Positions 3,550 to 31,857 are shown, counted from the first letter of the stretch. The stretch is 34,594 nt of DNA from an uncultured Bacilli bacterium (GCA_947628445.1 CANQZX010000001.1:1-34594); one strand, 5' to 3'. A program made the numbers and translations. Notes: generated from the letters alone by a model not told the origin.

Positions 3550-4875
3550 TTAATCCATTGCTAAACGATAAGGATTTAATTGCGTTCCATTGCCTTTCAA
3601 TAATTTAGTTTGAGAATTTAAATAAAAAACCGGTCTTATCAAATTATTAATGGTATCAGACACTGAATTTGGATGGCCTATACTACCACTTGAAGAAACA
3701 AAAAAACTATGGGATGTACTAGTATTATTATGGGTAATAGTCCATTCAAATAAACCAAGATATAACCAATTTTCTTCAATCGCCGAACGATAATCGGCAT
3801 TATCAGCGCCAGATGTAACTTTTGACCAATTATTAGGTAAAGCTGCATACATATAATCAGAAACATACATGAGTCCAATATAATTGGAATAAAATTGAGG
3901 ATTGGTTTTTGTTAATTCTTTATTAAAAACCGCTTTAGCATTACTTACGGCAATTTCTGACCAAGATCCTCCAGTTATATTCCAATCATGAAACATAATT
4001 AATTTTCGCCATTTTTCCTTTAAATAAGTATTATAGTAAAAATCATTTAAATTATTTTTATTTAAACGACTTTCAAGCCAATTATTAGTTCCTGTACCAC
4101 CTGTTTCTTGTGCTCCATTCCAAAAATAAGTGGCTTTATTTTTAAAATGGGTATTTTCTAAGCGATAAGTACTAAGGGGATTACTAGTAATAGTTTGAGC
4201 ATAATCACCAATTCCTTCACCACCGGTTTGGTCAATAGTTGTATAATCTGCTTTAATTAATTTCATTTCATATTGATTATCATTGTTTAAAAAAAAGCCA
4301 ATTATTTGATATAAATTTTCAATATTACAATTATCATCATCACTATTAAAACAAACAAAATTATTTACTGTTTCTCTTTTCCCCGTATATCGATAACTTA
4401 AATCTTCCGCCTCTAAATTATAATTTTCCATGCCATCATAGTCGGCCTTCCCATCATGATAAATTAGTGCACTATCCTTTTGATAGTTTTGAGTAAAACA
4501 TTCACTCATGTTTTGACCACGACATAAACTAGCGATATTATCCTTATCTAAGTATACATAGCATTTATCACTTTTATCCGCTATTACTTTTACCTTTCCA
4601 TCTTCAAAACTTATTTTACTACCATTTTCACATTTACTTAATTTAGCATTAAATACATATCCCTCTTGAACAAAACTAGCATCTTTACTTTCCTCATACT
4701 TACCTGTTCCTGCTTCACTTTCGAGCATCATACTTATAAAATTATTATTTTTAACTTTTTCCTCGTTAGAAATTATTTTAGCTACAGGATTATTATCTTG
4801 ATAAATTATAATTATGATATTTAATAATAACCAGGTAATTAATATTATATTTAAAAAGGAAAATTTAGTTTTCAT
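3550..4875 (-). CDS. membrane-anchored surface protein, paralog A (conserved N-terminal module plus variable C-terminal module)
   Basis: The ATG at 4875 follows AGGTGA. An N-terminal hydrophobic anchor FSFLNIILITWLLLNIIIIIY is present. Residues up to about 167 are nearly identical to paralog B. The C terminus carries IGLMYVSDYMYAA, IRPVFYLNS and GNGTQLNPYRL motifs. Confidence 0.8.
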   Translation of the reverse strand: MKTKFSFLNIILITWLLLNIIIIIYQDNNPVAKIISNEEKVKNNNFISMMLESEAGTGKYEESKDASFVQEGYVFNAKLSKCENGSKISFEDGKVKVIADKSDKCYVYLDKDNIASLCRGQNMSECFTQNYQKDSALIYHDGKADYDGMENYNLEAEDLSYRYTGKRETVNNFVCFNSDDDNCNIENLYQIIGFFLNNDNQYEMKLIKADYTTIDQTGGEGIGDYAQTITSNPLSTYRLENTHFKNKATYFWNGAQETGGTGTNNWLESRLNKNNLNDFYYNTYLKEKWRKLIMFHDWNITGGSWSEIAVSNAKAVFNKELTKTNPQFYSNYIGLMYVSDYMYAALPNNWSKVTSGADNADYRSAIEENWLYLGLFEWTITHNNTSTSHSFFVSSSGSIGHPNSVSDTINNLIRPVFYLNSQTKLLKGNGTQLNPYRLAMD

Positions 4876-4925
4876 TTTCTTCACCTATTTTCCCCTTTAT
4901 TATATATATATATATATATATGCAA
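4384..4925. repeat. direct repeat copy A (5' half-kilobase of the gene plus 5' UTR plus promoter)
   Basis: By-eye alignment with 5712-6253 shows only scattered substitutions over about 540 nt. Confidence 0.85.
4899..4925 (-). promoter_or_regulatory. promoter with a (TA)n spacer for paralog A
   Basis: Minus strand reads TTGCAT (4920-4925), a 15-nt all-T/A alternating spacer (4905-4919), then TATAAT (4899-4904). The uninterrupted alternating tract spans 4901-4921 (21 nt). Confidence 0.6.
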
Positions 4926-4931
4926 GTTTTT

Positions 4932-6203
4932 TTAATTCATTGCTATACGATAAGGTTTTTCTTTAGTACCATTACCACTGATAAGATTGATCGTTGGTTT
5001 AAGATAAAAGGCTGGTCTTACAGTATAAATATAAGATACTTTATCATATATGATATAGCCTCCAAATGCAAATAATACACCTTGTTGAGGATACATGACT
5101 AATTCCCAATATTTAGGATACAACCAATCAATATTTCTAAAAGTAATATTAGGATCTACATTACATAAATGTCCCTCACCATCATTACCACAAGAGTTCC
5201 AATACTTATTTTCAGCAGCATAAAAATAATCCGATATATACATTAATCCTATTTTAGCATCAACGGTTGCTATTTCTTTATTATTATCAATATTATATAA
5301 TTCTCGAGCATTAAGACGAGAAGGATGTTTTTCATCAAGTAAATTGCTGTTATTGGCCGTAATCCATTTATGACTATTAATATAGTTTTGCCATATAGAA
5401 TTTAAATAGCTATTTAAATAATAACCATTTAAATTAATGTTATTTAAATTACTTTCAGCCCATAACGGCTTAGAAGCATCGCCATTACTAGTATTCCAGC
5501 AATACCGAATAGTATTATTGTCATCTGTTCCACAATAAGCTCCATTTGTACCTAAATGTTTAGTTGATGCTTCCGTAGCTTTAATTAATTTTGCTTCATA
5601 ATTTCCTTCTTCATTTTGAAAGAAACCAATGATGCGATATAAATTATCTTCTAAACAAACCTCATCATTAGAATTAAAACAGACATAATTATTAACAACA
5701 TCATTAGTTCCCGTATATCGATAGCTTAAATCTTCCGCTTCTAGTTCATAATTTTCCATGCCATCATAGTCGGCCTTACCATCATGATAAATTAGTGCAC
5801 TATCCTTTTGATAGTTTTGAGTAAAACATTCACTCATATTTTGACCACGACATAAACTAGCGATATTATCCTTATCTAAGTATACATAGCATTTATCACT
5901 TTTATCCGCTATTACTTTTACCTTTCCATCTTCAAAACTTATTTTGCTACCATTTTCACATTTACTTAATTTGGCATTAAATACATATCCCTCTTGAACA
6001 AAACTAGCGTCTTTACTTTCCTCATACATGCCTGTTCCTGCTTCACTTTCGAGCATCATACTTATAAAATTATTATTTTTGACTTTTTCTTCGTTAGAAA
6101 TTATTTTGACTATAGGACGATTACCTTGATAAATTATAATTATGATATTTAATAATAACCAGATAATTAATATTATATTTAAAAAGGAAAACTTTGGTTT
6201 CAT
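4932..6203 (-). CDS. membrane-anchored surface protein, paralog B (same N-terminal module, different C-terminal module)
   Basis: The ATG at 6203 follows AGGTGA. The N-terminal ~167 aa are nearly identical to paralog A. The C terminus is divergent but keeps IGLMYISDYFYAA, VRPAFYLKP and GNGTKEKPYRI. Confidence 0.8.
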   Translation of the reverse strand: MKPKFSFLNIILIIWLLLNIIIIIYQGNRPIVKIISNEEKVKNNNFISMMLESEAGTGMYEESKDASFVQEGYVFNAKLSKCENGSKISFEDGKVKVIADKSDKCYVYLDKDNIASLCRGQNMSECFTQNYQKDSALIYHDGKADYDGMENYELEAEDLSYRYTGTNDVVNNYVCFNSNDEVCLEDNLYRIIGFFQNEEGNYEAKLIKATEASTKHLGTNGAYCGTDDNNTIRYCWNTSNGDASKPLWAESNLNNINLNGYYLNSYLNSIWQNYINSHKWITANNSNLLDEKHPSRLNARELYNIDNNKEIATVDAKIGLMYISDYFYAAENKYWNSCGNDGEGHLCNVDPNITFRNIDWLYPKYWELVMYPQQGVLFAFGGYIIYDKVSYIYTVRPAFYLKPTINLISGNGTKEKPYRIAMN

Positions 6204-6253
6204 TATCCTCACCTATTTTCCCCTTTATTATATATATATATATATATTGTCAA
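5712..6253. repeat. direct repeat copy B (5' half-kilobase of the gene plus 5' UTR plus promoter)
   Basis: Partner of 4384-4925. Confidence 0.85.
6227..6253 (-). promoter_or_regulatory. promoter with a (TA)n spacer for paralog B
   Basis: Minus strand reads consensus TTGACA (6248-6253), a 15-nt alternating spacer (6233-6247), then TATAAT (6227-6232). The uninterrupted alternating tract spans 6229-6247 (19 nt). Confidence 0.65.
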
Positions 6254-6262
6254 GGTAACGAA

Positions 6263-6482
6263 GTTACTATTCACAGATAAATTATGCAAAAATAATTTTT
6301 CCCACTTTTGGTATTAAAATTGATATAAAATTGGAAATTAAAATCTAAAAAGTAAATATTTTTTGTATACTTCTCCCACTTTGAAGAAAATGGTGTTTTT
6401 AACAACTTTTTTCTGAAATAACTGCAAACCAATATATTATCTAGATTTGCGAGTTTTTTTAAAAAAATCTGTGAATAGTAAC
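6263..6482. mobile_element. MITE-like non-coding element (220 bp) with 16-bp perfect terminal inverted repeats and a flanking 9-10-bp direct duplication
   Basis: GTTACTATTCACAGAT at 6263-6278 is the exact reverse complement of ATCTGTGAATAGTAAC at 6467-6482. GGTAACGAA(G) sits immediately outside both ends, at 6254-6262/3 and 6483-6491/2. The interior has only a low-complexity 80-aa ORF. Confidence 0.5.
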
Positions 6483-6527
6483 GGTAACGAAGCTTTGCAC
6501 ATATGATTATCAAGGCAAAAAATTCTC

Positions 6528-9761: not shown

Positions 9762-9797
9762 ACAAAAAGAAAGGAAAACGAATACTTTCCGTTTCCC
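9762..9797 (-). terminator. intrinsic terminator closing the lipoprotein operon
   Basis: Minus strand reads GGAAACG-loop-CGTTTTCC followed by TTTCTTTTTG. Confidence 0.6.
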
Positions 9798-9807
9798 TTA
9801 AGATTCA

Positions 9808-10506
9808 TTATTTTAATAAGGCCTTGGTTATTGTTACTTTTTCGCAACTATCACTTTTTTCATTATAAGTATATTCCTCGCTTGAGCACTTTTTAGTTGC
9901 TGTTCCTGTTTCTGTTTCCACACATTTAGAACCCTCTAATTCACCCTTCGTACAAGAATAAGTTGTTATTACTTTAACCGACTTATGACATTTAAAATCG
10001 TTGCCTAAAGTATAACCATCTTCACATTTAGCAATACTTTTTGCTTCCGCGGGGGTTTCATAACAATCTTCATTTGGTCCTTGACGACAAATCCGAATGA
10101 TACAAGCGCCATCTTTAACTCCTACTGCTTGATAATAATAACCATTACTTTCTTGATGTTGCGTGTAACTTTCCATACACTCATAATCAAATCCTGGTTG
10201 TTTCGTATCCGTAGTACTTAGACACATATCACCCTTTAGTTCATAACCAGTAGCGCAGCTTTTGTTTGCTTTAGCATTAGTTGTCGTTGTTTTAACACAC
10301 TTGCCATCGGTTACTTTAAAACCTTCTTCGCATTCGATAATAGCTTCTTCCGTAGCCACAACTTCACAATTTTCACCCTTTAGCGTGCCTTCTTCACAAT
10401 AATATTCTTTTTCGTTTGCTTTAGTTTCTTTGGTCTCTTTACTACCACAACCGGCAAAAGTTAAGACAAGGATTCCACACATTAAAATACTAAATAACTT
10501 TTTCAT
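9808..10506 (-). CDS. Cys-rich modular lipoprotein, family member 4 (most divergent)
   Basis: Signal peptide with lipobox LTFAGC. The mature part has 16 Cys arranged in repeated C-x2-G-[YFT]-x-[LV]-x-G-x2-C modules. The N and C termini are homologous to 11000-13142. Confidence 0.8.
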   Translation of the reverse strand: MKKLFSILMCGILVLTFAGCGSKETKETKANEKEYYCEEGTLKGENCEVVATEEAIIECEEGFKVTDGKCVKTTTTNAKANKSCATGYELKGDMCLSTTDTKQPGFDYECMESYTQHQESNGYYYQAVGVKDGACIIRICRQGPNEDCYETPAEAKSIAKCEDGYTLGNDFKCHKSVKVITTYSCTKGELEGSKCVETETGTATKKCSSEEYTYNEKSDSCEKVTITKALLK

Positions 10507-10521
10507 TTTTCTCCTATTTAA

Positions 10522-10983
10522 TTAATAATATACGACAACAACGCCATCATCCCGTGTTGAATTCTCAGGATCATAAATATTGTATGATACCCCATACCAA
10601 GTAGTACCACAATCATCGACAATTTCATCACAATTTACGGTAAATACCCGACTATCAACATTATCCGTTATATCAAAGAAGGCCGTACTTTGACTTTCTT
10701 TCGTGCATTCTTCTTTAGTTGCATAAAAATATTTATAATTTTTTGTAAATTTTTTGGGCGTACAAGTTTCAGTTGGAGTAGTTGTCGGAGTTTCTTCTGG
10801 AGTTTCTGTAGGGGTTTCTTCTAATTTATCTTGGGTTTCTTCTTTTTCTTCAACATCAGTTACCTTATCATCAACTACCGGAGCCGTAATATTGGTTTCG
10901 GTATTAACCTTTTCTTTATTGCCACATCCCGTTAAAAAGAAAATACAAAATAAAGCTATAACGATACCATATATCTTTTTCAA
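10522..10983 (-). CDS. lipoprotein with a Glu/Pro/Thr-rich linker (unrelated to its neighbours)
   Basis: TTG start after AGGAAGTGA. Lipobox FLTGC. Linker EETPTETPEETPTTTPTE, then a 4-Cys C-terminal domain. Confidence 0.7.
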   Translation of the reverse strand: MKKIYGIVIALFCIFFLTGCGNKEKVNTETNITAPVVDDKVTDVEEKEETQDKLEETPTETPEETPTTTPTETCTPKKFTKNYKYFYATKEECTKESQSTAFFDITDNVDSRVFTVNCDEIVDDCGTTWYGVSYNIYDPENSTRDDGVVVVYY

Positions 10984-10999
10984 AATATCACTTCCTAAA

Positions 11000-11205
11000 T
11001 TATTTTTCTAAGGCCTTCGTGGTCGTTATTTTTTCACATTGCTTACTTTCGGCATTATAAGTAAAACCATCAGTTTTACAAGTATTGGTTACCTCTTTAG
11101 TATCCGTAATCGTACATTTTGAACCACTTAATTTTCCTTCAGCACAAGTGTAGCTTGTTTTAACGGTACTTGTTTTATAACATTTACCATCAATTTCTTT
11201 GGTAT
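11000..11205. repeat. conserved 3' block of the lipoprotein genes (copy 1 of 3)
   Basis: About 200 nt nearly identical to 11733-11938 and 12447-12652. It encodes ...KCTITDTKEVTNTCKTDGFTYNAESKQCEKITTTKALEK. Confidence 0.8.
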
Positions 11206-11716
11206 CACTAGAACATGCCGTAACTGTAGTATATTCTGTTCTATTAATTTCCCCTCCATCGCATTTGCCTTCATACCAATGTGTACAAGCGCTATACCAA
11301 CATTCACCATTTTCTTCGTAAACTGTATTTTTGCTTGTTTTACCATCAATATCAGTATATTCACCAATATCAAATTCTTTAGGTAAACGGCATTCTTGAG
11401 TAGTCACTTTATCATAAGTTTCATTACTTAAACAAGTACTGCCACTTAAAGTAAAACCTTCACTGCAAGTTTTGGTGGCGGTAGCATTCATCGTTGTCGT
11501 TTTAACACATTTGCCATCCGTTTGTTTATAACCATCTTCACATGTTGCCACAGCTTCTTCGGTTTCAACTGCTTCACAATTTTTTCCTTTTAAAGTTCCT
11601 GTTTCACAATAATATTCTTTTTGATCTTCTTTTGTTTCCTTGGCTTCATTACTACCACATCCCGCAATAGTTAAAACTAGGATTCCACATAATAAAATAC
11701 TTAATCCTTTTTTCAT
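11000..11716 (-). CDS. Cys-rich modular lipoprotein, family member 3
   Basis: The ATG at 11716 follows AAGGAA. Lipobox LTIAGC. Shares the same N-terminal and C-terminal modules. Confidence 0.8.
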   Translation of the reverse strand: MKKGLSILLCGILVLTIAGCGSNEAKETKEDQKEYYCETGTLKGKNCEAVETEEAVATCEDGYKQTDGKCVKTTTMNATATKTCSEGFTLSGSTCLSNETYDKVTTQECRLPKEFDIGEYTDIDGKTSKNTVYEENGECWYSACTHWYEGKCDGGEINRTEYTTVTACSSDTKEIDGKCYKTSTVKTSYTCAEGKLSGSKCTITDTKEVTNTCKTDGFTYNAESKQCEKITTTKALEK

Positions 11717-11732
11717 AAAATTCATTCCTTAA

Positions 11733-11938
11733 TTATTTTTCTAAGGCCTTCGTGGTCGTTATTTTTTCACATTGCTTACTTTCGGCATTATAAGTAAACC
11801 CATCAGTTTTACAAGTGTTAGTTACTTCTTTAGTATCGGTAATCGTACATTTTGAACCACTTAATTTTCCTTCTTTACAAGTATAAGTTGTTTTTACGGT
11901 ACTTGTTTTATAACATTTACCATCAATTTCTTTCGTAC
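11733..11938. repeat. conserved 3' block of the lipoprotein genes (copy 2 of 3)
   Basis: See 11000-11205. Confidence 0.8.
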
Positions 11939-12425
11939 CACTTGGACAGGCATTAACTGTCGTTGGTTCATATTCTTCTATTACACCATCCATACATATA
12001 TCATCTCTGTATTTAACACACATAGATGTTGAACATTTGCCTTCATCATTCAAACTACCTTTTGTAAAACCTTCAGCCGCTAAATCTTGAGGTAAAATAC
12101 ATTCTTGCGTTGCTACTTTTTCGGTTGCTTCATTACTGACACATGTACCGCCATTTAAAGTATAGCCATCACTACAAGTTTTCGTAGCTGCAGCTTTTAT
12201 AGTCGTCGTTTTAACACATTTACCATCTGTTAGTTTATAGTCATCTTCGCACGTTGCCACAGATTCTTCTGTTTCAACTGTTTCACAATTTTTTCCCTTT
12301 AAAGTTCCTGTTTCACAATAATATTCTTTTTGATCTTCTTTGGCTTCTTTAGCTTCATTACTACCACATCCCGTAATAGTTAAAGCTAAGATTCCACATA
12401 GTAAAATATTTAATGCTTTTTTCAT
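11733..12425 (-). CDS. Cys-rich modular lipoprotein, family member 2
   Basis: Lipobox LTITGC. The N-terminal roughly 90 aa and C-terminal roughly 66 aa are nearly identical to its neighbours, while the core is different. Confidence 0.8.
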   Translation of the reverse strand: MKKALNILLCGILALTITGCGSNEAKEAKEDQKEYYCETGTLKGKNCETVETEESVATCEDDYKLTDGKCVKTTTIKAAATKTCSDGYTLNGGTCVSNEATEKVATQECILPQDLAAEGFTKGSLNDEGKCSTSMCVKYRDDICMDGVIEEYEPTTVNACPSGTKEIDGKCYKTSTVKTTYTCKEGKLSGSKCTITDTKEVTNTCKTDGFTYNAESKQCEKITTTKALEK

Positions 12426-12446: not shown

Positions 12447-12652
12447 TTATTTTTCTAAGGCCTTCGTGGTCGTTATTTTTTCACATTGTTTACTTTCGGC
12501 ATTATAAGTAAAGCCATCCGTTTTACAAGTATTGGTTACTTCTTTCGTATCGGTAATGGTGCATTTAGAACCACTTAATTTGCCTTCTTTGCAAGTATAA
12601 GTCGTTTTTACGGTGCTTGTCGTATAGCATTTGCCATCGACTTCTTTCATAC
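12447..12652. repeat. conserved 3' block of the lipoprotein genes (copy 3 of 3)
   Basis: See 11000-11205. Confidence 0.8.
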
Positions 12653-13142
12653 CATTTTCACAGCCTAATTCATAAATTGGTTCAACATAATCTTCATAGC
12701 AATCGGTACCATCAGCATTTTGACAAATTTGCACGATACATTTATGATCTTCCGCCCGCACTGAACGATAGTAATAATTTCGTTCCGGATCATAAGCAAA
12801 TTTTTCTTGAATGCCACCGCGACAAGCGGGAACTAATTCACGATCGACACCAGTTTTGCTAAGGCAACTACCATTTTTAAGTTCATAACCATCACTGCAA
12901 GTTTTGGTGGCTGTAGCTTTTACGCTTGTTGTTTTAACACATTTACCATCGGTTAATTTATAACCATCTTCGCAAGTTAACTCGGCTTCTTCCGTGGCTA
13001 TAACTTCACAATTTTGGCCCTTTAATGTACCCTCTTCGCAATAATATTCTTTTTGATCAACAAGCGCTTCTTTTGTTTCACCACAGCCAGCAAGTGTTAA
13101 AATAAGCACACCACATAATAAAAATTGCATAGTTTTTTTCAT
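12447..13142 (-). CDS. Cys-rich modular lipoprotein, family member 1 (operon-proximal)
   Basis: The true start is the ATG at 13142 (MKKTMQFLLCGVLILTLAGC), 8 nt after AGGAG. The ORF-track N-terminal extension merely reads through the TA tract. The core resembles that of member 4. Confidence 0.8.
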   Translation of the reverse strand: MKKTMQFLLCGVLILTLAGCGETKEALVDQKEYYCEEGTLKGQNCEVIATEEAELTCEDGYKLTDGKCVKTTSVKATATKTCSDGYELKNGSCLSKTGVDRELVPACRGGIQEKFAYDPERNYYYRSVRAEDHKCIVQICQNADGTDCYEDYVEPIYELGCENGMKEVDGKCYTTSTVKTTYTCKEGKLSGSKCTITDTKEVTNTCKTDGFTYNAESKQCEKITTTKALEK

Positions 13143-13167
13143 ATCAATAAGCTCCTTTCTTACTTTT

Positions 13168-13196
13168 ATTATATATATATATATATATGAACGCAA
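13168..13196 (-). promoter_or_regulatory. promoter with a (TA)n spacer for the lipoprotein operon
   Basis: Minus strand reads TTGCGT (13191-13196), a 17-nt spacer made of TC plus 15 nt of alternating A/T (13174-13190), then TATAAT (13168-13173). The uninterrupted alternating tract spans 13170-13188 (19 nt). Confidence 0.65.
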
Positions 13197-13248
13197 GCAT
13201 TTTTTGACTTGTGTTAATCCAAAAAAATTCCTTAAAAAGGAATTCATT

Positions 13249-14703
13249 TTAAACTAATTTATGCATTTCATATATCTTTTGGGATAAATCGGTAACAATT
13301 TTAAAATCCCGGTTGGCTTCCATGGTAAGTATAACAACGATATAAGGCTTATTATCTAGCACAATACCAACATCATGATAATAGCCACCGTAATAACCAT
13401 ATTTATGCATAATTGTCGGTGCATTAGGAAATAACAAATAATTGTAATAATCATTAATAAAGTAATTTTTTAGTTCCGTTCTTTTATTAGCATCAATATT
13501 ACTATTATTAATAAAATTATATAAATATTTCATATAGATTAATTGATCATCGACACAAGTGTTACCATAATAATCACTACTACCTCGAGTTAAAGTATAT
13601 TTAGCCCCCATTTTTGTTCCATAATTTTTTAAATTTACAAAACCAATCGTTTGAACTAATTTAGCATGGGTTTGATTATTACTTACCTCAATCGTTGGTT
13701 TAACTAAGGCCTTAAGTTCATCCGTTAAAGTCATATTCTCATAAACATATAAAGCATCTAATGTCTTAACTAAACTAGCCCCATAATATACTTGATTTGC
13801 ATTATATTTATAAGTATAACCAGTATTAATATTATAATAACCAATGCTGACTTTATAATTATTTTCCTTAATATATCTTTCTAAACTAACTTGATAGGTG
13901 GCTAAACTGTCAGTATCAAAACTATAAACAATAACTTTTCTTTGCACTGTAGCCGTATTACCCATTAAATCCGTTACGGTATAAGTTAAAGTATATGTCC
14001 CGGTTTCGTTCGAATTAACCATACCACTTACAGTAACTTTACTAGCCAAATCGCCGGAGCAATTATCTTGAGCCGTATAGCCCGGTTCCGTATATTTGGT
14101 ACCCTTACTTAAATAAATGGTACTTGCTCCCTTTAATTTAAGGTTTGGTTTTTCTTCATCGGTATATTTTATCGTACGCGTGACCTCACTTTGATTATGG
14201 GAAGAATCACTAACCCGATAATAAATTGTATTACCTTCTTGGCTAACTTTAACTTGATCGGTAATATCGCCATCATAATTATCATAAGCCTTATAGCCTG
14301 GTTCCACATATCCTTTACCCGTGCAAGCTTTAATTTCTGTAGCCCCACTTAATTCAATTTGGGGTGCTTCCTTTTCCGTAATTTCCACTTGGCGTTTCAA
14401 CATATATTGTTTATTTTGATTATTTAACGCATAATTAATAGTAAAAGTTCCTATTTTTCCGGGTTCAATATTATTTTCGACTTGCACCACAGCTTTAAGA
14501 TTTTGACAGAAAAATAAATTACATCTTTGTGCAATAAACCCCTCTTCATGATAAGAGTCACTCAAATCTAAAGAATATATTTTGTCTCCTTTTAATTTAA
14601 ATTCCAATTGAAAAGTAAAGAAAGCCCATAAAATAAAAGATAACAAAATTAAAATTATCAAGATATCACTAAAAATTAAAAATCCTTGGTTATTTTTTTT
14701 CAT
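13249..14703 (-). CDS. membrane-anchored protein: two Ig-like (DUF5011-type) domains fused to a class-A beta-lactamase-like serine hydrolase domain
   Basis: The ATG at 14703 follows AGGAG and precedes an N-terminal TM segment. Two repeats have the pattern P-x-[IL]-x-L-x-G...EPGY-x-A-x-D-x-x-x-GD[IL]. The C-terminal domain has YYGASLVKT (S-x-x-K), VSNN (SDN-like) and HKYG (KTG-like). Confidence 0.7.
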   Translation of the reverse strand: MKKNNQGFLIFSDILIILILLSFILWAFFTFQLEFKLKGDKIYSLDLSDSYHEEGFIAQRCNLFFCQNLKAVVQVENNIEPGKIGTFTINYALNNQNKQYMLKRQVEITEKEAPQIELSGATEIKACTGKGYVEPGYKAYDNYDGDITDQVKVSQEGNTIYYRVSDSSHNQSEVTRTIKYTDEEKPNLKLKGASTIYLSKGTKYTEPGYTAQDNCSGDLASKVTVSGMVNSNETGTYTLTYTVTDLMGNTATVQRKVIVYSFDTDSLATYQVSLERYIKENNYKVSIGYYNINTGYTYKYNANQVYYGASLVKTLDALYVYENMTLTDELKALVKPTIEVSNNQTHAKLVQTIGFVNLKNYGTKMGAKYTLTRGSSDYYGNTCVDDQLIYMKYLYNFINNSNIDANKRTELKNYFINDYYNYLLFPNAPTIMHKYGYYGGYYHDVGIVLDNKPYIVVILTMEANRDFKIVTDLSQKIYEMHKLV

Positions 14704-17244: not shown

Positions 17245-17350
17245 CCTCCTTTTTTAAAATTAAAAGCCTCCGCATAGGGAAGCTTAAAAAAATACTCATT
17301 TTAAGATTTCCCTCGGTAGGACTTACTAATTGCCTACTGTCTTCGGTTTT
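17245..17350 (-). promoter_or_regulatory. ribosomal protein L10 leader-like attenuator upstream of rplJ
   Basis: Minus strand reads CCGAAGACAGTAGG...CCTACCGAGG, a hairpin with an internal loop. It is followed by AAGCTTCC-CTATGC-GGAGGCTT plus a T-rich run, directly before the rplJ RBS. This position and layout match the Firmicute L10 leader. The assignment is from memory, with no covariance-model search run. Confidence 0.5.
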
Positions 17351-17376
17351 CATTTCGTATTATATTACATTAATAA

Positions 17377-30912: not shown

Positions 30913-31857
30913 TTAATCCATCCTTACTATATCTTTATAATTTTGAGGGAATCCCATTTCTTCTAATATTTTATCAATACTGATGGTTTTTAACCGTCCG
31001 GCTAAAATATCCAATTCGTATTCAATTTCACGCATTAACAAATTGAAATTATCGCGATTTAATAACTGTTTTAACATAATAATTAAAGCAAATAAATCGT
31101 TTTTTCCTTTAACATAACCATCTTCCCCTTGAGGAATATTTAATAAATTATGATATTTTGTATCTTCAATTGCCTTATGCGTTTTATTATTATAACAAAT
31201 ATCTTCATGAGCACATAAGTTCCGATAATTCGCAATTATAGGTAAGTATTCTACCATGCTATAAATATCGCTATTAAATAATTCGGCTATTTCTCTTTGA
31301 TCTTGGGCTTGCAAAACTGTATAAAGTTCACTGACAATCCCAAAGGATAAAACTTTCACCACAACCCAAAGGGGGATATAACCATAATAATCAATAAAGT
31401 GTGCCGTGGCTGTATGTTGCCGCCCATTAATACTAATTTGTCTTTTCATCTTTCGAATTAAGTCATTAACTTGTCTTTTCTTTGTCGGATTTTGGACAAA
31501 ATTTCGCGGATTTAAATAATTATTTTCTTTAAACCCATGATTTTTACTCATAACATATGCCAAAATACTTTTTAAGTTATTTTCCACAATCAAAATATTT
31601 TTAAAAATAATATTTCGGAGTTGCCGATCAAAACTAAAAACCGCATAAATTTCATTGAAATTAGTTCCTGGGATAAATGATTTTTCATATATATCAGATT
31701 TAATAAATAGATGCCGATAACCACTTAAAAAGAAATAGTTTTCCCGTAAAAGAATATTTTTGGCATTATCGATATCATCAATTACTAAACCTTTATTCTT
31801 TAATATTTCAATTTGCTCATCCAATGTCTTAAAGGTTTTTGATTTCACTAGCACCAC
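30913..31857 (-). CDS. Abi_2 (AbiD/AbiF-like) abortive-infection family protein
   Basis: The N terminus FKTLDEQIEILKNKGLVIDDIDNAKNILLRENYFFLSGYRHLF closely follows the Abi_2 family consensus as I remember it. A later LCAHED motif is present. The start may be the GTG at 31851. Confidence 0.75.
   Translation of the reverse strand: MVLVKSKTFKTLDEQIEILKNKGLVIDDIDNAKNILLRENYFFLSGYRHLFIKSDIYEKSFIPGTNFNEIYAVFSFDRQLRNIIFKNILIVENNLKSILAYVMSKNHGFKENNYLNPRNFVQNPTKKRQVNDLIRKMKRQISINGRQHTATAHFIDYYGYIPLWVVVKVLSFGIVSELYTVLQAQDQREIAELFNSDIYSMVEYLPIIANYRNLCAHEDICYNNKTHKAIEDTKYHNLLNIPQGEDGYVKGKNDLFALIIMLKQLLNRDNFNLLMREIEYELDILAGRLKTISIDKILEEMGFPQNYKDIVRMD

Follow-up and report, generated by a model that had tools for sequence, protein, structure and literature searches.

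The window, by which we mean the whole stretch of 34,594 nucleotides analysed here, is chromosomal: it carries the ribosomal genes L11-L1-L10-L7/L12 with an L10 leader, together with genes for enolase, pyruvate:ferredoxin oxidoreductase and RecG. Because BacA, FemAB and Amidase_3 are present, we conclude that the host makes a cell wall. Related contigs (numbered L001 onwards) come from 'uncultured Bacilli bacterium' MAGs of the rabbit ('Lapin') gut. The canonical L10 leader (17251-17364) upstream of rplJ is an ordinary feature of the surroundings, as is an Abi_2 (abortive-infection-like) gene that adjoins an HtrA-like protease gene (30913-31857).

A lipoprotein gene block and the promoter before it

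Five lipoprotein genes lie on the minus strand, tightly packed as the preliminary description of this DNA had reported: gene 1 (12447-13142, 231 aa, lipobox LAGC, Cys-rich all-beta), gene 2 (11733-12425, 230 aa), gene 3 (11000-11716, 238 aa), gene 4 (10522-10983, 153 aa) and gene 5 (9808-10506, 232 aa). A lipobox is present in all five, that of gene 1 inside the N-terminus MKKTMQFLLCGVLILTLAGC, and the gaps between successive genes measure 21, 16, 16 and 15 nt, each with a Shine-Dalgarno-like sequence. The block is closed by an intrinsic terminator with a 12-bp stem and a T-run (9771-9799, minus strand, -12.9 kcal/mol). Upstream of it, on the same strand, is a gene for an Ig-like/beta-lactamase-like protein (by Pfam) of 484 aa (13249-14703), followed by its own terminator (13218-13249, minus strand), a hairpin and T-run with an RNA fold of -8.7 kcal/mol and then U7. 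This upstream hairpin has 2 G-C pairs and is weak.

Genes 1, 2, 3 and 5 are paralogues whose all-beta product is rich in cysteine: 16 Cys residues are invariant, and hairpins of the form C-x2-G-[YF]-x-[LV]-x-x-G-x-C recur. Gene 4 is unrelated to the other four. Only 22 homologues were found among 5.8 billion proteins, all of them in rabbit-gut Bacilli MAGs and none named, and the family is confined to rabbit-gut ('Lapin') assemblies. The AlphaFold model of the lipoprotein (pLDDT 86) is all-beta and has no fold neighbour in the PDB below E = 0.1. Pfam gave no family for the lipoproteins, only a sub-threshold DUF3761 match, and NCBIfam likewise gave none, only signal-peptide-level matches; no homology to the Vmm/Vmc family was detected by the Pfam, NCBIfam and PDB fold searches. 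The metagenome collection gave no matches to a gapped pattern specific to this locus. Contigs L020-L024 carry genes 2 and 5 of the window, match it at 99.3-100% identity and end short of the promoter. Gene 4 contains a 24-nt in-frame tandem repeat (10774-10822) in an ETPT-rich linker, with two copies in the window and one in L022 (153 aa vs 145 aa), and this is the sole difference between them in 3.3 kb.

The start of gene 1 is a place where gene callers can be misled. An open reading frame at 12447-13247 (minus strand, ATG at 13247) runs for 266 aa across the upstream terminator and the TA tract described below (...YIYIYII...) into gene 1. This frame exceeds the real gene (231 aa) in length, and that may be why the 231-aa product is off record in the protein collection. 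Exact-product look-ups with the first lipoprotein and the upstream 484-aa gene returned no record, and no extra alleles of the window's arrangement were retrieved.

Read directly on the minus strand, the sequence from promoter to start is AAAAAATGC TTGCGT TC ATATATATATATATA TATAAT AAAAGTAAGAA AGGAG CTTATTGAT ATG. The -35 hexamer TTGCGT (13191-13196) matches the consensus in its TTG only and aligns with the TTGACA or TTGATT of repeat-less orthologous promoters. It is separated by a 17-nt spacer (13174-13190) from the -10 hexamer TATAAT (13168-13173), which is invariant in the orthologous-promoter alignment, and the Shine-Dalgarno sequence AGGAG (13152-13156) lies 9 nt 5' of the ATG at 13142. 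On the upstream side, the -35 is abutted by the A-rich AAAAAATGC (13197-13205, minus strand), a putative UP-like element; the sequence 5' of TTGCGT-TC(AT)7A-TATAAT on this strand is GTCAAAAAATGC by direct reading. Tandem Repeats Finder identified a perfect, uninterrupted (TA)9.5 tract of 19 nt at 13170-13188 (100% matches), which makes up 15 of the 17 spacer bases and the first four of the six bases of the -10. The preliminary description had placed both hexamers and their 17-nt spacing correctly to the base, and its count of 15 spacer nucleotides within the tract is confirmed, as are the AGGAG (read at 13156-13152) and the lipobox-containing start at 13142. It was right that the tract overlaps the -10 and slightly understated the extent, calling half of the hexamer (three bases) what is in fact four.

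Chance in AT-rich DNA does not account for this tract: the 12-mer TATATATATATA, or (TA)6, occurs 13 times in the window, every time inside one of three TA tracts, vs 0.07 occurrences expected from dinucleotide-preserving shuffles of the window. After these three tracts, the next dinucleotide run by length in the 34.6-kb window is 8 nt, and a scan of the same 34.6 kb found no homopolymer longer than 8 nt and no simple sequence repeat beyond the three TA tracts. The earlier argument against a chance microsatellite, drawn from the recurrence of the design elsewhere in the window, is therefore borne out both by these counts and by the two further copies described in the next section.

Between the upstream terminator hairpin and the Shine-Dalgarno sequence there are only about 55 nt, and these hold no other promoter-capable stretch. 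Because the interval is so short, and because repeat-less orthologous promoters align with it, the sequence supports the TA tract as the spacer of the sole plausible promoter before gene 1, with a predicted TSS downstream. We took a perfect simple repeat of about 8 or more dinucleotide units as long enough to slip in repeat-in-spacer phase-variable promoters, and the (TA)9.5 tract exceeds this length. In the predicted promoter TTGCGT-17-TATAAT the repeat lies between the -35 and the -10, where unit changes would alter the spacing only. No inverted repeats were found around 13168-13196, and known RNA elements are absent at all three TA-spacer promoters.

A single tract gating all five genes, as originally proposed, is plausible on the sequence because of the tight packing and the flanking terminators, and the five genes would then presumably depend on this promoter alone. 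Two features speak against that part of the proposal: the weakness of the upstream terminator (2 G-C pairs, -8.7 kcal/mol) and a promoter-like sequence, TTGTAAAAC-GATGG-TTTACT-TATAAT (TTGTAA-16-TATAAT, with a perfect -10), of which genes 1-3 each carry a conserved copy in the 3' coding end. The copies at 12528, 11814 and 11081 (12501-12528, 11787-11814 and 11054-11081, minus strand) lie some 100 nt ahead of the start codon of the next gene, which is gene 2, 3 and 4, respectively. The tract might accordingly gate the first gene or genes only, with genes 2-4 on internal promoters or the block fed by read-through from upstream, a reading that we regard as possible but rather unlikely. The internal sites could be promoters or merely conserved coding sequence, and either they or read-through of the weak terminator could uncouple some genes from the tract; however, promoter-like matches in general are near the shuffled level (85 found vs 72.6 expected), these three lie in coding sequence kept for protein reasons, and gaps of 15-21 nt without terminators are typical of co-transcription.

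Two further TA-spacer promoters and an adjacent MITE

The other two tracts lie in promoters of the same kind on the minus strand. In the second promoter (6227-6253), a 15-nt spacer separates TTGACA (6253-6248) from TATAAT (6232-6227) and the 19-nt tract occupies 6229-6247; this promoter stands before a surface-protein gene of 423/426 aa (6212/6203-4932, minus strand). The third (4899-4925) pairs TTGCAT (4925-4920) with TATAAT (4904-4899), again across a 15-nt spacer; it has a 21-nt tract at 4901-4921 and precedes a 441/444-aa paralogue (4884/4875-3550, minus strand); no terminator was found between the preceding gene and this promoter. The two surface proteins are near-identical over their first ~150 residues and divergent at their C-termini, and both have an N-terminal membrane anchor. 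All three tracts share one register, in which a TTG hexamer lies 0-2 nt upstream, the tract ends in TATAAT and a Shine-Dalgarno sequence follows, and in each case the start codon of a secreted protein or lipoprotein is 25-35 nt downstream. The genes behind the three tracts thus encode surface products throughout, namely five lipobox proteins and two membrane-anchored paralogues.

The preliminary description had claimed the same design at two other surface-protein genes. The tracts at 6229-6247 and 4901-4921 bear this out, but the spacers are 15 nt and not 17, and with this spacing the 6229 and 4901 promoters are predicted to be in a weak or OFF state. Two ways of restoring 17-nt spacing at the 15-nt promoters were considered and rejected: TAATAA as the -10 is without the conserved final T, and CTTGCA as the -35 is without the TTG.

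Contigs from related genomes differ from the window in this region. L025 (99.6% identical) carries the same 19-nt tract at the second TA-spacer promoter. Over L025 1-1400, compared with window 3550-6253, a single gene stands in place of the two tandem surface-protein genes, and in it the 6229-type promoter and N-terminus are joined to the main part of the 444-aa gene. Such a fusion implies that the paralogues recombined in their near-identical 5' regions. L007 has neither surface-protein gene at this position; it has a paralogue upstream of the lipoprotein operon instead. Besides the tract, the region has thus diversified by paralogue recombination (L025), by the change in the gene 4 repeat (L022) and through the divergent C-termini of the surface proteins.

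Next to the second promoter is a 220-bp MITE (6263-6482) with 14-bp terminal inverted repeats CTGTGAATAGTAAC at 6263-6276 and 6469-6482. It is flanked by a 9-bp target-site duplication, TTCGTTACC, at 6254-6262 and 6483-6491, and is flush with the -35 of that promoter. L007 has a 219-bp MITE within 1015-1251, with the duplication AAAAAATGC, flush with the -35 of its lipoprotein TA promoter, and window 13197-13205 is the empty site of that insertion. Two independent MITE insertions therefore occupy equal relative positions at two different TA-spacer promoters. In L006, the element at 63-281 is the one found in L007 with a different left flank, which could reflect recombination or a chimeric contig.

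An inverted repeat beside a promoter of a surface-protein gene recalls the invertons of gut commensals, which also give stochastic ON/OFF expression of surface structures. We rejected an inverton at the 6229 promoter: the inverted repeats are the ends of a MITE, which is flanked by 9-bp target-site duplications. This element faces the same way in the window, L006 and L007, and no recombinase gene lies nearby. The mechanism proposed here also differs from that of invertons, being slippage and not inversion.

Tract length in related genomes and metagenomes

Orthologous promoters without a repeat were found in L004/L005 (TTGACA-18 nt-TATAAT-AAATGGTAATGAAGGAG) and in L026-L029 (TTGATT-18 nt-TATAAT-TATGCAAAAGGAGG). 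In alignment A3 both of their hexamers match in position with those of the TA-tract promoters, and we therefore read the tract, which is present in two of roughly eight lineages sampled, as a derived replacement of an ordinary spacer. The spacer of L026 starts with a short TATATAT, a plausible seed of the TA repeat. Housekeeping-type promoters of the clade have spacers of 17-18 bp.

At this locus the tract is 19 nt in 3/3 assemblies (window, L006 and L007/L009), and no variation is seen among these consensus sequences; because L006 and L007 are identical, the three assemblies are effectively two lineages. L007 and the window are 91% identical over 6.7 kb, and 103 nt spanning promoter, leader and signal peptide (13206-13104) are 100% identical between them. 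In a sister species, whose lipoproteins are ~78% identical to the window's, the orthologous promoter is TTGACA-(AT)n-TATAAT, and in three independent assemblies the tract measures 21 (L001), 21 (L010) and 23 nt (L002), for spacers of 17, 17 and 19 nt, respectively. L001 and L002 differ by 4 mismatches and one gap over 9451 bp (99.9% identity), and the gap is the TA tract. Repeat-less promoters served as a control: no differences were found among the four independent assemblies L026-29, nor among the five to six in L030-35. The earlier claim that the tract slips in TA units, and the proposed check for length variants in related genomes, therefore meet a divided result: heterogeneity in the sister-species orthologue (21/21/23 nt), and a constant 19 nt in the two lineages at this locus.

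We scanned the metagenome collection with the pattern TTGACA-(AT)6 or more...ATATATAAT, to which spacers <15 nt are undetectable, and recovered at least 120 TTGACA-(AT)n-TATAAT loci. Among the matches listed, pure-tract spacers were 15 nt in 68 cases, 17 nt in 22, 19 nt in 16, 21 nt in 6 and longer in 4. The 15-nt class is the commonest among them (68/119), with no peak at 17, which fits 'most switches OFF' and a plain microsatellite length distribution equally well. Seven of 11 same-flank groups from different assemblies, among the matches listed, are polymorphic in 2-nt steps, and the polymorphic groups include contigs at 16-47x coverage; in one such group, spacers of 15, 17 and 21 nt precede a ~1,020-aa surface protein (contigs at 16.7x, 5.6x and 6.2x). 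Signal-peptide-like N-termini were assigned to 42/75 downstream ORFs vs 62/456 other ORFs on the same contigs, again among the matches listed (odds ratio 8, p = 1e-14, by a crude heuristic and with orthologues that are not independent). From the scan counts, the polymorphic groups and the ORF enrichment, it follows that this is a common design, one that mutates in nature and goes with secreted proteins.

Length differences between assemblies could in principle be artefacts that arose when a low-complexity repeat was sequenced or assembled. PCR stutter is common at dinucleotide repeats, and because the L001 and L002 contigs have a coverage of only 4-5x, a consensus error is conceivable for the 21/23-nt pair. 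As a general account we hold artefact to be extremely improbable: the differences are exact multiples of 2 nt with flanks otherwise indel-free, they reach three units between contigs at 16.7x, 6.2x and 5.6x and also occur between contigs at 47x and 7x, and repeat-less promoters at equally low coverage have no differences.

A second possibility accepts the promoter and the length changes but not their use. The TA tract might be a neutral microsatellite, expanded from the -10's TATA together with the AT-rich spacer in this genome of 30% GC, and tolerated without being under selection. Its length changes would then be rare promoter-inactivating accidents, not a switch of use to the cell. In keeping with this, the tract is 19 nt in both lineages at the locus despite 9% flank divergence, the repeat-less promoter of L026 has its TATATAT seed at the equivalent place, and tract lengths in the scan become rarer as they grow longer, among the matches listed. 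Against it, the window holds three long tracts and no intermediate lengths, all three in the same register of surface-protein promoters; such promoters are strongly enriched before secreted proteins among the matches listed; and unit-step polymorphism is frequent among near-identical strains. The same 9% divergence cuts the other way as well, since repeat purity is perfect across it and neutral repeats usually gain interruptions. On balance, we consider a neutral tract unlikely.

A proposed slippage switch and its precedents

The reading that we favour, with a probability of roughly 0.65, is a slipped-strand contingency promoter in which the length of the TA tract is the ON/OFF switch of the five-lipoprotein block. 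A housekeeping-sigma (sigma-70/SigA-type) promoter would lie at 13168-13196, the 3' end of the tract supplying the TATA of TATAAT. Slipped-strand mispairing in replication would gain or lose TA units and leave both hexamers intact, because the tract is laid out across the spacer and the -10. Each unit would change the spacing by 2 bp in either direction and rotate the hexamers by ~70 degrees relative to each other. From the hifA/hifB and Vmm precedents described below, we infer that tract length would control transcription: the optimal 17 bp is predicted to be ON, and 15 or 19 bp, one unit away, to be weak or OFF. No alternative hexamers that would restore 17 bp after a unit change were found nearby. 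As the tract heads a terminator-bounded five-gene unit, it would form a heritable, reversible and stochastic switch for a surface-antigen block. Two like switches 7-8 kb away would control the two paralogous surface-protein genes, and because both of those promoters are in the 15-bp state here, the three loci could together produce combinatorial surface phenotypes.

Alternatively, (AT)n could act through DNA structure, by cruciform formation or easy melting, and render promoter activity dependent on supercoiling. Little superhelical stress is needed for (AT)n tracts to extrude cruciforms, and the tract here is self-complementary, with a 7-bp hairpin possible. The hairpin is weak, however (-1.8 kcal/mol, z = 0.07 vs shuffles), and structure leaves the unit-step length polymorphism unexplained. 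We think this very unlikely as the main mode of action; a structural contribution would be compatible with the switch model and does not exclude it.

For the slippage switch, the mechanism, the repeat unit and its position are already known from hif and Vmm-type promoters. In M. capricolum, the Vmc genes have a (TA)n tract in the promoter spacer of variable surface lipoproteins. In Mycoplasma mycoides, Vmm is turned ON and OFF by dinucleotide indels in the promoter spacer (PMC10502178; PMC2628566), and in Haemophilus influenzae a TA repeat alters the -35/-10 spacing of hifA/hifB and hence transcription (PMC3899988). The preliminary description had named the fimbrial genes of H. influenzae as its model. 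Arguably, the mycoplasma (TA)n lipoprotein promoters (Vmm) are the closer precedent, with a TA unit in the promoter spacer, surface lipoproteins of a low-GC Bacillota-lineage organism as products, and several independently switchable loci close together, which here are candidates. The present case differs from Vmm in that the host is a walled, uncultured gut Bacilli with the standard genetic code and not a mollicute, that one tract heads a five-gene block instead of a single gene, that switching is predicted, and that the lipoproteins could not be matched to any named family. The hifA/hifB promoters share the TA dinucleotide repeat between -35 and -10, but their tract lies in overlapping divergent promoters and serves two directions, and their products are the fimbriae of a Gram-negative host, whereas the promoter here is unidirectional and serves lipoproteins. 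A simple sequence repeat in or near the spacer also controls surface proteins, as a volume or on/off control, in porA of Neisseria meningitidis (poly-G) and vlp of Mycoplasma hyorhinis (poly-A) (PMC3899988; PMC10502178); those repeats change in 1-nt steps with graded expression, in contrast to the 2-nt steps here.

New here are the host, a walled and uncultured commensal of the Bacilli, the five-gene load, and the hint of a widespread design before secreted proteins in metagenomes. Simple-sequence-repeat phase variation has been catalogued almost entirely in pathogens, and a 2025 review posed as a question whether multi-locus phase variation is truly pathogen-confined or the result of database bias (PMC11868660). 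With three candidate switches in 35 kb, this uncultured commensal bears on that question. We suggest tentatively, and at something short of even odds, that (TA)n-spacer promoters are a widespread, uncatalogued contingency class in commensal gut Bacillota. Such a class would be consistent with the multi-locus 'phasomes' in uncultured walled Bacilli, the bias towards secreted proteins and lipoproteins, the unit-step polymorphism between hosts and the MITE found repeatedly flush with the -35. Surface-antigen expression in such bacteria would not be readable from a consensus assembly, and tract alleles could mark within-host selection by IgA or phage.

Among the matches listed in the metagenome scan, a conserved protein of ~70 aa (MRIILDTDKKTITVPWNY... 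and variants) recurs behind TTGACA-(AT)n-TATAAT in unrelated gut contigs (L053, L058, L061, L066, L089, L093, L098, L107, L109, L118, L128, L140 and L142). These contigs range in GC from 0.32 to 0.57 and their spacers from 15 to 21 nt, and the protein may be encoded by a mobile-element gene with a variable promoter.
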